64,000 nucleotides of DNA. It comes from Psychrobium sp. MM17-31 (GTDB lineage Bacteria; Pseudomonadota; Gammaproteobacteria; Enterobacterales; Psychrobiaceae). Both the position numbers and the translations under genes were made by a program. Positions 22,943 to 25,957 of the stretch are shown here, in pieces. Below the pieces are notes generated by a model. It worked only from the letters and a program-made list of their open reading frames with translations. It searched no databases and was not told the DNA's origin. The stretch's first letter is position 1. Every line of letters begins with the position of its first letter. Location: NCBI RefSeq assembly GCF_022347785.1, contig NZ_JAKRGA010000005.1, positions 163,519-227,518 on the forward strand. The letters are read 5' to 3'.

Positions 22943-24106
22943 ATGGGCAAATCCGTCCAAACCATTGCAAAAAACGTTAGCCTCATTGCGTCCAAAAAGA
23001 CGTGGATTGAAGGGTTAGCTGTTGAGCAATTAAAGAAAACATCACAACTAACAGGTATGCACAGCGTTGCTGGCATGCCCGATTTACACCCCGGCCGTGG
23101 TTATCCCATTGGCGCGGCGTTTTTTACAACCAACAAAATATATCCTGCATTAGTGGGCAACGACATCGGCTGCGGCATGGCACTATGGCAAACATCCACC
23201 AAGGTGGCCAATGTCAAATTAGACAAACTCGCCAAGCAGTTTAAAGACATCGAGCAGCCACTCGACAGTGAATGGCATGAGCAAATTGCAGCGCGAAAAC
23301 AAGATAAGGACATTACAAATGATATTTTTGATCAAGCACTTGGCACCATAGGCGGCGGTAATCACTTCGCTGAGTTTCAAGCAATCGATAAAATCTACGA
23401 CGGTGAAACAGTGGCAGCATTAGGATTAGATCGCAAAAAACTCCAGCTGTTAGTGCACTCAGGTTCGCGTGGCTTTGGCCAATCGATATTAGTCGAGCAC
23501 ATAACTAAACACAATCACTGTGGACTGTTGGTCGATGGCGACGATTTTAACGATTATTGCCAGCAACACGATCACGCAGTGCGCTGGGCTGAGTTAAATC
23601 GTGAATTTATCGCCAAGCGATTTTTAGCAGCAATTCGCGCCACTGGCAATTGCGTTCTGGATGTAAACCATAACTTGGTGTCTCCGAAAACGATTGGCGA
23701 AACAAAAGGTTGGTTACATCGCAAAGGCGCAACTCCCGGTGATCAAGGCTGCGTGATGATCCCTGGCTCGCGCGGTGATTACAGCTATTTGGTCAAACCG
23801 CTGCCATTAAGCGAAGAACAAGCGCTTACGAGTTTGTATTCACTGGCGCATGGCGCTGGCCGTAAATGGAAACGCGGTGAATGTCAGGGTCGACTGAGCA
23901 ACAAATACAAACGCGACGACTTATATCGCACCGCGCTAGGAAGCCGCGTCATTTGCGGCAACAAAGAACTGCTGTATGACGAGGCACCACAGGCTTATAA
24001 GAAATGCCAAACGGTGATCAGCGATATGGAAGACGCAGGACTGATCGAAGTAGTCGCACGATTAAAACCCGTGCTGACCTTTAAAACCAATGGAGATTGT
24101 AGCTAA
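22943..24106 (+). CDS. rtcB: RtcB-family RNA ligase, PrfH-associated paralogue
   Basis: RtcB motifs [27 protein letters not shown] and HGAGR are present. Its stop overlaps the prfH ATG (TAATG). Confidence 0.85.
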
Positions 24107-24726
24107 TGATTTTATTACAAATCTCCGCTGGGCAAGGCCCGCTAGAGTGCTGTCGCGCCGTGGCTCTAGCTTTAAAAGCCATTGAAAAACAATGTAAAAA
24201 CAGCAAGCTCGATTATCAGATTATCGAAGTCGTCAACGCTGAACGCAAAGGCTGTTTCAAATCAGCACTGATTCGTTTTGACGACAGTGAAATCGCTAAA
24301 CAGGTCGTTTCACAGTGGCAAGGTGCCATGTTGTGGATCTGCCAGAGCACGTTTCGGCCCAAGCACAAACGCAAAAACTGGTATTTCAGCGGCTGCGTAT
24401 ATGAAGTGGAAGAAAGGGAGTTTGATAAACACATCGTTTTTCAAAGCTGCCGCGCATCAGGCGCTGGCGGACAACACGTTAACACCACTGATTCGGCAAT
24501 TCGCGCCACGCATGTGGCAAGCGGATTAAGTGTCAGAGTAGAACAAGAGCGCAGCCAGCACGCCAACAAGCGTTTGGCCATCGCCCTGCTCTACCAAAAG
24601 TTAACGCAACATCAACAACAAACCGCCAGTGCGCAAGATAAAGCACGCTGGCAACAACATTGGGAAGTACAACGTGGCAACCCGGTGAGAACCTTTGTCG
24701 GTGACAAGTTCACCTGTAAAAAATAA
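24106..24726 (+). CDS. prfH: Peptide chain release factor H
   Basis: The 206-aa ORF has the GGQ motif (SGAGGQHVN). It is translationally coupled to the upstream rtcB paralogue. Confidence 0.85.
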
Positions 24727-24761
24727 TAAGGAAATTCAAATGACTATCAATATTTTTAAAG

Positions 24762-24796
24762 GTGCTCTCTTTTAGCTAACAACTAAAGGAGAGCAC
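24762..24796 (+). promoter_or_regulatory. Hairpin sequestering the Shine-Dalgarno sequence of the downstream small ORF
   Basis: The 8-bp arms GTGCTCTC (24762-24769) and GAGAGCAC (24789-24796) pair. The 3' arm contains the SD AAGGAGAG, and the ATG follows at 24798. Confidence 0.35.
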
Positions 24797-24797
24797 A

Positions 24798-25016
24798 ATG
24801 AAACGAGAGATACGATTAATCAAAGCCTATGGCTGTATTGAATTCGGACTCGCCGACATGCCCAACAAAATATCAGGCACAGCGATATCACGAATTACTT
24901 TGGGAGACGACATAGGCTGCGCATTTTGCTTCCCTCATGGCTACGACACAATCAACAGCCGTGAAATGAAGAGGCAGCGCAACTGGAAACGCCAACGCAA
25001 AACGCAATGGCGTTAA
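24798..25016 (+). CDS. Small Cys-containing hypothetical protein (72 aa)
   Basis: A strong SD precedes the ATG. Cys residues occur in GCIEFG and GCAFCFPHG, so it may bind metal. Nothing else is recognisable. Confidence 0.4.
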   Translation: MKREIRLIKAYGCIEFGLADMPNKISGTAISRITLGDDIGCAFCFPHGYDTINSREMKRQRNWKRQRKTQWR

Positions 25017-25041
25017 CCATACAGAATTTAAAGGATTTATT

Positions 25042-25623
25042 ATGACAATCATTGCAGCAGCAATTAAAAACGGGCAAGTAGCCATTTCATCTGATACTCA
25101 GGTTAATTTTGGCGCATTACAAGTCAATTCGAAATACCTAGTCGACAAAACGAAATTGTTTCGCGTCGGCGATAGCGTTTTAGGATTTACAGGTTGGTCG
25201 GCAACATGCCAAATCATGGAGCATCTATTAGCAAGTGAGCCAGAGTTATTTGAACTCGACAGCCGCATGACAATTTTCAGTACGTTATTGAAAATTCAGC
25301 ACAAGCTCAAAGAAGAGTACTTCATCGATACTAGTGAAGACAGTGACCAACCGGTCGAGTCTAATCAAATTGACGGTTTGGTGATCAACCCGACGGGTAT
25401 TTATCAAATTGGTAGTTATCGAGAAGTGCACCAATACAGTCAGTTTTGGTCAATTGGTTCTGGCCGCCGCTACGCTCTTGGTGCAATGCACAGCACCTAC
25501 GACACCGCGACTTCTGCACAAGAAATCGCTGAAGCAGGAGTTAAAGCAGCCGCAGAATTTGATGATGCGTGTAACTTGCCACTCCACACCATGGTGCTGG
25601 ATTTGGCAACAAACCAAGGATAA
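25042..25623 (+). CDS. HslV-like proteasome-type Ntn hydrolase (stand-alone, no HslU nearby)
   Basis: The 193-aa ORF starts MT-IIAAAIKNGQVAISSDTQ, matching the HslV N-terminal Thr architecture. A GSG segment (WSIGSGRRYALGA) parallels the HslV IAIGSGG segment. Confidence 0.6.
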   Translation: MTIIAAAIKNGQVAISSDTQVNFGALQVNSKYLVDKTKLFRVGDSVLGFTGWSATCQIMEHLLASEPELFELDSRMTIFSTLLKIQHKLKEEYFIDTSEDSDQPVESNQIDGLVINPTGIYQIGSYREVHQYSQFWSIGSGRRYALGAMHSTYDTATSAQEIAEAGVKAAAEFDDACNLPLHTMVLDLATNQG

Positions 25624-25624
25624 A

Positions 25625-25957
25625 TTGATAAACATTTTATTCATTTGCAGCCGTAATCAATGGCGCAGTCCGACGGGTGAGCAAGTTTGGCGTAATCACC
25701 CGGAGGTCTCAGCACGATCGGCTGGCACTAGCACCAAGGCTAAACGAAAGGTATCAGCCAAAGATATTCAATGGGCGGATCTGACTTTAGTTATGGAACA
25801 AAAACACAAACAGCGGTTGCAAGCTAGCTTCAACCGCCTACTAGCTCACAAGCGATTAATCGTATTGGATATTCCCGATGAATATCAGTACATGGACCCT
25901 GAGCTAGTGACTATTTTAAAACAAAGCGTCGCGCCGCTAATTTGCGCAGACGAATAA
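25625..25957 (+). CDS. Low-molecular-weight protein-tyrosine-phosphatase/ArsC-fold phosphatase family protein
   Basis: The CX5R P-loop (ILFICSRNQWRSPTGE) and a DP motif (YMDPEL) are present. The TTG start at 25625 lies 4 nt after an AAGGA SD and the upstream stop. The ATG at 25562 is an alternative. The 182-aa track ORF 25409..25957 is an over-extension. Confidence 0.55.
   Translation: MINILFICSRNQWRSPTGEQVWRNHPEVSARSAGTSTKAKRKVSAKDIQWADLTLVMEQKHKQRLQASFNRLLAHKRLIVLDIPDEYQYMDPELVTILKQSVAPLICADE

Follow-up and report, generated by a model that had tools for sequence, protein, structure and literature searches.

The locus at positions 22943–25957 raises the question whether the genes that follow a known ribosome-repair gene pair, rtcB2-prfH, take part in the same process or merely lie next to it. 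It is located in a stretch of 64,000 nucleotides (nt) from Psychrobium sp. MM17-31 (contig NZ_JAKRGA010000005.1, positions 163,519 to 227,518, forward strand), referred to here as the window, the coordinates of which are used throughout. Behind the RNA ligase gene rtcB2 and the gene of release factor H (PrfH), the locus encodes a 72-amino-acid (aa) protein, a proteasome homologue of the BPH family and a 110-aa phosphatase. A preliminary description, made from the letters and open reading frames (ORFs) only, had proposed a functional link of the protease and the phosphatase to rtcB2-prfH. The evidence compiled here tips somewhat towards a single operon for damaged or stalled ribosomes, consisting of the known core and an accessory part with a gate of its own. 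The linkage of the downstream genes to prfH is supported; their biochemical roles are inferred. The following features were identified:

22943–24106, + strand: rtcB2, RNA ligase of the PrfH-associated RtcB subfamily (Pfam RtcB, E = 7e-74; NCBIfam NF007153, TIGR03073)
24106–24726, + strand: prfH, release factor H of the tail-less EcPrfH type (TIGR03072, GGQ)
24740–24775, + strand: leader upstream ORF for the peptide MTINIFKGALF, preceded by a separate AAGGAA Shine-Dalgarno (24728–24733; read from the sequence)
24762–24796, + strand: 14-bp hairpin, the 3' arm of which (24783–24796) contains the AAGGAG Shine-Dalgarno (24786–24791) of the 72-aa gene
24798–25016, + strand: 72-aa gene (small72) of an undescribed family, with CxxCFPHG core and predicted Lys/Arg-rich C-terminal helix
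25042–25623, + strand: BPH-family proteasome homologue with predicted N-terminal Thr1 nucleophile and acidic pore loop DTSEDSDQPVES
25625–25957, + strand: predicted minimal Cys phosphatase (110 aa) of the low-molecular-weight protein tyrosine phosphatase (LMW-PTP) fold, with TTG start, P-loop CSRNQWRS and D-loop DIPDEY
25972–25994, no strand assigned: 10-bp GC-rich hairpin separating the operon from the convergent TonB_C gene (minimum free energy, MFE, −21.4 kcal/mol; z = −4.4)

Operon layout and the rtcB2-prfH core

All five protein-coding ORFs of the preliminary description were recovered on the + strand, separated by short gaps throughout. With the leader ORF included, the intergenic distances are −1, 13, 22, 25 and 1 nt in order, and each gene possesses a Shine-Dalgarno of its own. 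No internal terminator-like site was predicted on the + strand between rtcB2 and the phosphatase gene by a terminator scan. The hairpin at 25972–25994 probably marks the operon end; only a weak T tract follows its stem, and the same scan did not call it as a terminator. A consensus promoter and terminator scan yielded no excess over shuffled sequence and did not reveal a clear promoter in front of rtcB2, and no Rfam family matched within 22500–26200. The three accessory proteins (72-aa protein, BPH and phosphatase) had no match in PADLOC, and in PHROGs matched only generic HslV and phosphatase families.

The first two genes proved to be a second RtcB paralogue and a GGQ-containing PrfH, as described beforehand. 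RtcB2 scores 554 bits with NF007153 (cutoff 407) and 530 bits with TIGR03073 (release_rtcB), is ~27 % identical to the canonical RtcB1 of the window (30180–31406), and belongs to the release-factor-associated subtype, separate from RtcB1. PrfH (206 aa) reaches 252 bits with TIGR03072 (cutoff 167) across residues 2–202, aligns with positions 119–319 of RF2 only and carries GGQ at residues 121–123. The stop codon of rtcB2 and the start codon of prfH share one base (TAATG), and the order rtcB2-prfH is held in all related loci with rtcB2 on the contig. A basic C-terminal extension of the PrfH-CT kind (PMC12829566) is not present in the window PrfH, since the protein ends 4 residues past the 200-position family model.

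The gene pair is a characterised repair module for colicin-E3-type ribosome damage and, as had been stated beforehand, already known (PMC9304027, PMC9223846). Escherichia coli PrfH enters the A site of ribosomes with 16S rRNA cut at A1493 and releases the nascent peptide, and RtcB2 re-ligates the 16S rRNA within the freed 30S subunit (PMC9304027, PMC9223846); only the proteins of E. coli and C. gingivalis have been characterised biochemically in this respect (PMC9304027, PMC12829566). With RtcB2-PrfH of E. coli ATCC25922 (PMC9304027, PMC9223846, PMC13166195) the window shares the two genes, their order and the overlapping junction, a tail-less PrfH scoring above the equivalog threshold and carrying GGQ, and an RtcB of the release-factor-associated subtype. 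In the accessible literature, however, RtcB2-PrfH is a two-component operon, whereas the window and ~60 % of related marine loci add at least one gene (the phosphatase); the 72-aa gene or BPH is furthermore inserted variably, and a leader upstream ORF with hairpin occurs as well. A prior description of phosphatase or BPH linkage to rtcB2-prfH was not found in the accessible literature, which did not include the RNA-repair survey of Burroughs & Aravind 2016 (NAR 44:8525). While the core is known, BPH and LMW-PTP are known folds or families in a new context, and the 72-aa gene together with its leader represents the most distinctive part of the locus. No other system is known that undoes ribotoxin damage on the ribosome itself, and RtcB2-PrfH has been treated as a two-protein system; a conserved phosphatase would imply that rRNA or ribosome repair, or the clearance of debris, involves a chemical step not recognised so far.

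As a side observation, a third, shorter RtcB paralogue (~373 aa; ~28–30 % identical to both RtcB1 and RtcB2) is located after prfH or BPH in three loci (L143, 7188–8309; L135, 5858–6340; L115, 7637–8755), and is preceded in L143 by an unknown 129-aa gene.

Phosphatase and proteasome homologue behind prfH

The proposed link of the downstream genes to prfH was examined by their co-conservation. A prfH-first survey yielded 44 metagenomic loci, 35 of which were informative (at least 450 nt downstream of prfH). The phosphatase gene follows prfH in 21 of these 35 loci, 16 of them with direct adjacency (23–77 nt between the tblastn matches). Other downstream genes among the 35 are the 72-aa gene (4 loci), BPH (2) and a fused basic N-terminal extension (1). 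Four architectures of the prfH-to-phosphatase interval were observed, namely nothing, the 72-aa gene, BPH or the fused basic extension, and some of them coexist within one group of related prfH genes; single-linkage dereplication of the loci (90 % nucleotide identity) over-merged them via conserved segments and was used for architecture variation only. Among named genomes, Colwellia psychrerythraea carries rtcB2-prfH followed by a 183-aa phosphatase with basic extension, Pseudoalteromonas phenolica the order rtcB2-prfH-73 aa-phosphatase, and Endozoicomonas sp. G2_1 (locus L001) rtcB2-prfH-BPH-phosphatase. In a Psychrobium metagenome-assembled genome (MAG), a 54-aa phosphatase fragment and PrfH bear consecutive accessions (MGB0834399.1 / MGB0834400.1), which suggests that in a close relative prfH and the phosphatase gene adjoin without the 72-aa gene and BPH in between. 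The proposal of a link holds for the phosphatase, and for the protease only narrowly. Judged from these neighbourhoods, the phosphatase gene is a frequent, retained third gene of the window-type PrfH clade, not one dedicated to prfH. The prfH link provides a first functional lead for this very large orphan family, which numbers at least 5327 clusters.

The phosphatase gene starts with TTG 1 nt past the BPH stop codon (AAGGA Shine-Dalgarno 5 nt upstream), and the GenBank annotation has the same start and the same 110-aa product. The CX5R and DP motifs noted beforehand are borne out by an alignment of 35 sequences, in which the P-loop C8-SRNQW-R14-S15 and the DIPDEY motif are invariant, the latter comprising D81, D84 and Y86 (alignment A6 numbering) of the D-loop and aligning with DIPDPY of Vibrio Wzb. 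Pfam LMWPc was matched with E = 5.5e-7. The AlphaFold2 model (pLDDT 94) has its best PDB counterparts, as determined by Foldseek, in YwlE, Wzb and other LMW-PTPs, with query-normalised TM-scores of 0.7–0.79 and target-normalised TM-scores of 0.45–0.62; of 77 PDB matches at E ≤ 1e-3, all 50 listed are of the LMW-PTP, YwlE or Wzb type. Based on this model, the protein is predicted to be a minimal LMW-PTP-fold enzyme. It has the fold, the Cys-X5-Arg-Ser P-loop at the N-terminus of helix 1 and the Asp-bearing D-loop in common with Wzb, YwlE and LMW-PTP, yet is ~40 residues shorter (110 vs ~150 aa) and contains invariant CSRNQWRSPT instead of CxGNxCRS.

Two closer assignments were rejected for the phosphatase. 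Canonical LMW-PTP or Wzb/Etp orthology disagrees with its length of 110 aa, its P-loop and its scores of 22–23 bits with the Wzb and Etp equivalogs (cutoffs about 245), and an ArsC-type arsenate reductase was dismissed because only one Cys is conserved. Phosphatases of 183–188 aa from Colwellia and Shewanella possess a conserved Lys/Arg-rich N-terminal extension of ~72 aa (EKNWKLMYxRSxKLxRAKQLGIDYP). Such extended forms are found in L094 (8001–8552) and L110 (6724–7254) and in proteins P0140, P0151, P0199, P0209 and P0222; their Shine-Dalgarno is buried in a hairpin, without a clear upstream ORF. Homology of this extension to the 72-aa protein was rejected (profile-profile probability 0.1 %).

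On its other side, the phosphatase gene is adjoined in at least 7 loci by genes for an ATP-dependent RNA ligase and an HD-kinase, and NADAR and KptA are encoded upstream of rtcB2 in several loci; these neighbours mark the whole setting as RNA repair. The fullest island has the order NADAR-KptA/Tpt1-DUF4291-rtcB2-prfH-(BPH)-phosphatase-ATP-dependent RNA ligase (PF09414)-HD plus P-loop kinase. Larger RNA-repair islands were observed in L001 (5851–13021), L144 (4166–9021) and L086 (785–1423).

The protease had been described as an HslV-like Ntn hydrolase without HslU. Its MTIIAAA start and GSG block were confirmed (Pfam Proteasome, E = 9e-7), as was the lack of an adjacent hslU, its neighbours being the 72-aa gene and the phosphatase gene. 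The label itself had to be replaced: HslV identity was rejected, the protein scoring 32 bits with the HslV equivalogs (cutoffs 137–158) and matching solved BPH chains far better (5ovu, E = 8e-43; 5ovs, E = 7e-36) than the best HslV (E = 2.5e-4). In a 20-sequence alignment T2 (T or S at this position), D18, K38 and G51 are invariant and S140 is conserved, as are E99, P104, E106 and S107 of the acidic pore loop. A long acidic pore loop has been described for BPH (PMC5777263). On the basis of these alignments, the protease is assigned to the BPH proteasome-homologue family, not to HslV. It resembles the BPH studied by Fuchs et al. 2018 (PMC5777263; PDB 5OVS/5OVT/5OVU) in Thr1, Asp17, the Lys and the acidic pore loop, in having no adjacent AAA+ partner and in its tendency to a stress-related operon, but is located in a new genomic context, directly after prfH. 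Whereas Fuchs et al. (PMC5777263) give Ser1 for all non-betaproteobacterial BPHs, the gammaproteobacterial clade of the window type has Thr1. A Thr N-terminal nucleophile (MT...) is encoded in the window at 25042–25047 and in L001, L003, L106, L135, L143 and L144. Four BPH homologues (P0017, P0102, P0118 and P0120) are named 'MFS transporter' in NCBI/UniRef, which looks like a propagated misannotation.

The narrowness of the BPH linkage is evident from the genomic contexts of the family. Scanning one genome per species retrieved 510 BPH relatives, and the context was read in the best 80 loci, with neighbours counted from greedy non-overlapping ORFs; clustering of raw six-frame ORFs was dropped, as it was swamped by spurious antisense ORFs in high-GC genomes. 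Only one of the 80 loci, L001, has prfH nearby. The betaproteobacterial BPH genes are located between aceF and lpdA, and those of several gammaproteobacterial MAGs between ribD and ribE. This riboflavin context (ribD-BPH-ribE-ribBA-ribH-nusB in L024, L036, L039, L062, L066 and L075) lies outside the three described in the literature consulted, in which BPH genes were found in arg, PDC or Hsp33 operons, stress-regulated and without an identified partner (PMC5777263). The two nearest homologues with context looked up (P0003 and P0009), on the other hand, start 4–9 nt after prfH, and in the tree 6 of the 8 placed loci of the Thr1 clade are prfH-linked (window, L001, L106, L135, L143 and L144), two being unlinked. 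The BPH family at large has no general prfH link; within this clade, judged from gene order, BPH is an occasional, clade-specific insertion after prfH. The insertion offers a first concrete substrate hypothesis for BPH, for which the structural study of 2018 found no partner (PMC5777263).

The 72-aa family and its leader

The 72-aa Cys-containing ORF with strong Shine-Dalgarno was confirmed in both respects, AAGGAG being located 6 nt upstream. Homologues at 67–89 % identity and an existing annotation (hypothetical protein MHM98_15545) indicate a real gene. Only two of the three Cys, C41 and C44, are conserved. A profile search retrieved at least 150 clusters at 50 % identity (95 at E ≤ 1e-10). 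P22, R32, C44-F-P-H-G, N53 and W63-K64 are invariant in the family, which is characterized by a core CxxCFPHG...N and a conserved basic tail W-K-x2-R; in an 8-sequence alignment, Q60, R61, W63, K64, R67, Q70 and W71 of the tail are invariant. AlphaFold2 prediction from 5 sequences (mean pLDDT 44) was unusable except for a C-terminal helix of low confidence. No relative was detected in Pfam, NCBIfam, PHROGs, PADLOC or the PDB, and neither the protein nor its 20-member alignment produced a significant Pfam, NCBIfam or PDB profile match that would indicate Arf-family homology. Where the 72-aa gene directly precedes the phosphatase gene, the two overlap.

Relatives of the 72-aa protein were also detected on phage contigs of 100–210 kb, in translation and RNA-repair neighbourhoods. 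In L145 (4356–8108) and L147 (4342–8811) they are located, sometimes in tandem, directly after the phage tmRNA and before Ro60/TROVE, in L146 (4986–6808) the relative precedes an RlaP-like nucleotidyltransferase, and in L148 (4986–7763) it resides within a cluster of nine tRNA genes. Recurring with its leader next to prfH, tmRNA, Ro60 and RlaP in bacteria and large phages, the family is a candidate for a stall-sensing switch combined with a rescue factor.

For RFH-RtcB systems, Burroughs & Aravind 2019 listed as accessory genes those of a TPR protein, a Pol-beta nucleotidyltransferase, a 'ZnR + positively charged C-terminal helix' protein and a charged helical protein (PMC6514570); neither a phosphatase nor a proteasome homologue is in this list. 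Compared by description only, the 72-aa protein resembles class 3 or 4 of the list in its small size, CxxC and basic C-terminal helix, and might represent the 'ZnR plus basic helix' class; with one conserved CxxC and a His, it does not amount to a full zinc ribbon. Basic tails of this kind were proposed to act like that of ArfB (PMC6514570). With the adaptors ArfA, BrfA and ArfT and the tails of PrfH-CT, SmpB and ArfB (PMC12829566), the protein likewise shares small size and a Lys/Arg-rich C-terminal segment predicted to be helical. Similar to rescue adaptors, its gene adjoins a tail-less release-factor homologue or a phage tmRNA and is under predicted RNA-hairpin control. It has, however, no detectable sequence homology to any of these adaptors and tails.

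The preliminary description gave the 72-aa gene little weight and did not notice its leader. The 11-codon leader upstream ORF is situated directly after the prfH stop codon, and its last codons together with TAG form the 5' arm of the hairpin at 24762–24796. This hairpin has an MFE of −25.4 kcal/mol (z = −5.2), and none of 200 shuffled sequences folds as well. Across 8 bacterial sequences, 90 % of the cells are paired, with 4 compensatory pairs; the covariation score was reached by none of 500 shuffles, and slid controls pair to only 45–59 %. The z values of the hairpins at other loci range from −2.3 to −5.8. The layout, i.e. an in-frame ATG with its own Shine-Dalgarno and a stop codon in the 5' arm, was found in all 12 distinct loci examined (8 bacterial, 4 phage), including those without upstream prfH (L085 and L145–L148), and both leader peptides and stems differ between loci (phage peptides MAIKKGVLM, MKKLLKHFFFR and MVLNYKSRGRRGTVF, each ending at the stop codon). 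In L001 the 72-aa gene has decayed to a 13-codon remnant, and the upstream ORF and hairpin are kept before BPH.

The leaders of cat-86, cmlA and erm consist of a short ORF with its own Shine-Dalgarno, the 3' part of which overlaps the 5' arm of a stem-loop occluding the downstream ribosome-binding site. The window leader has this same architecture, with the short ORF overlapping the 5' arm of the occluding hairpin, and shares the topology of cat/cmlA/erm translation attenuation. It differs in displaying no sequence similarity to these leaders, in having the stop codon itself within the stem, and in the gene behind it, which encodes an uncharacterised small basic protein, whereas cat, cmlA and erm leaders precede resistance enzymes.

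Proposed function and alternatives

For the operon slightly favoured here, the following course of events is proposed. In the core, PrfH would release the peptide on the A1493-cut ribosome and RtcB2 would re-ligate the 16S rRNA in the freed 30S subunit. At the gate, a ribosome reaching the end of the upstream ORF would have to melt the hairpin that hides the Shine-Dalgarno of the 72-aa gene, so that translation of this gene and, by close spacing, of the BPH and phosphatase genes would depend on leader translation. The output of the three accessory proteins would then rise whenever ribosomes linger on the leader, as in attenuation of the cat/cmlA/erm type. The 72-aa protein probably attaches to the ribosome or rRNA by means of its basic C-terminal helix; it may act in trans as the mRNA-channel tail, which in PrfH-CT is part of the release factor itself (PMC12829566). 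BPH, a putative unfoldase-independent compartmentalised peptidase with acidic pore, probably disposes of the unfolded, untagged polypeptides released by PrfH; basic unfolded proteins, e.g. an incoming toxin domain, may be its substrates instead. The probable task of the phosphatase is to take a phosphate off an RNA end or a phosphoprotein arising in damage and repair. The roles suggested beforehand, breakdown of released peptides and removal of 2'/3' phosphates, are likewise conjectural.

A more far-reaching version of this course, put forward tentatively and unlikely to hold in all its parts, centres on the CxxCFPHG family. The 72-aa protein would be a hitherto unrecognised ribosome-rescue factor switched on by the leader upon stalling; its basic helix would enter the mRNA channel left vacant, or the decoding site after damage, and provide the tail in trans for tail-less PrfH, or aid tmRNA in phages, thereby extending PrfH to other stalled ribosomes, with BPH and the phosphatase cleaning up peptides and phosphorylated RNA ends.

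Several findings weigh against a single functional operon. E. coli PrfH-RtcB2 functions with the two genes alone (PMC9304027), and 12 of the 35 informative prfH loci are without any accessory gene. Of 8 named genomes sampled, 5 (Hahella, Vibrio aerogenes, Pseudomonas flavescens, Collimonas and Moritella) have the phosphatase without prfH, and linked and unlinked phosphatases are interleaved in the tree; together with the large size of the family, this indicates that the phosphatase function is not PrfH-specific. Most BPH genes among the best 80 loci reside in pyruvate-dehydrogenase or riboflavin operons. The linked loci all belong to one PrfH clade, because the scan patterns (WQGAMLW and ARWQQHW) are specific to one clade of marine gammaproteobacterial PrfH, so that shared ancestry and related contigs inflate the linkage counts. 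Co-transcription and inducibility of the cluster are inferred. Since RtcB needs a 3'-phosphate, a 3'-phosphatase would work against it, and the arrangement of upstream ORF and hairpin might serve for constitutive translational coupling only, without any sensing of stalls.

One alternative views BPH and the phosphatase as generic stress cargo, i.e. housekeeping enzymes for unfolded peptides and for phosphotyrosine or phosphoarginine (Wzb/YwlE-like), respectively, which are merely co-induced and act on neither ribosome nor RNA. It agrees with the several different stress-regulated operons of partnerless BPH genes (PMC5777263), with protein phosphatases, the arginine phosphatase YwlE and Wzb, as closest folds, and with the 65–75 % identity of the phosphatases across contexts, which suggests one substrate everywhere. 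The phosphatase lacks, however, ~40 canonical LMW-PTP residues and has the invariant CSRNQWRS in place of CxGNxCRS, is repeatedly joined after prfH to Lys/Arg-rich modules resembling nucleic-acid binders, and often has the RNA ligase and HD-kinase on its other side. This explanation is considered doubtful, if still worth carrying along.

According to another, rather improbable explanation, rtcB2-prfH is the sole functional unit, and the 72-aa gene, BPH and the phosphatase are passengers that landed in a fluid RNA-repair and defence island and were kept by ancestry and read-through. The pdh and rib operons of most BPH genes, and the arg, PDC and Hsp33 operons known from the literature (PMC5777263), fit such a history, as do the solitary phosphatases, which do not form a clade separate from the linked ones, and the prfH loci devoid of accessory genes. 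Speaking against passengers are a phosphatase kept in 60 % of loci despite at least 4 remodellings of the intervening DNA, gaps of 4–57 nt and overlapping stop and start codons, which indicate coupling, the independent proximity of the 72-aa family to tmRNA, Ro60 and RlaP in phages, and basic extensions fused to the phosphatase specifically in prfH loci. That the post-prfH hairpin is a transcript-end or mRNA-stability element of rtcB2-prfH, with the upstream ORF as a by-product, is very unlikely: while complementarity of the 5' arm to AAGGAG dictates the C-terminal codons of the upstream ORF (...GALF-TAG) and no Rfam family matches, no T tract follows the stem, and the layout recurs in all 12 loci, unrelated phage stems and peptides included, even where no prfH lies upstream.

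In addition to the genes of the cluster, the window contains rtcR and a Band7-rtcB1-rtcA-rlaP operon, 0.6 kb downstream of it. The RtcR-type sigma-54 activator (33213–34817, + strand) is divergent from this minus-strand operon, which encodes Band7/SPFH (31421–32617), RtcB1, RtcA, RlaP, a 312-aa HEAT-like protein (27371–28309) and an unknown 279-aa protein (26535–27374). In L104, L109 and L112 the HEAT-like protein is again encoded next to rlaP, and L110 possesses it as well; the 279-aa protein was met again in L115. Upstream of rtcB2 and divergent from it, a 254-aa ABC/SMC-like ATPase is encoded on the minus strand (21861–22625), matching AAA_15 and AAA_21, with mad3, AriA and PtuA-like proteins as best PADLOC matches; large AAA_13 ATPases flank the module in Colwellia (L094) and in L143.

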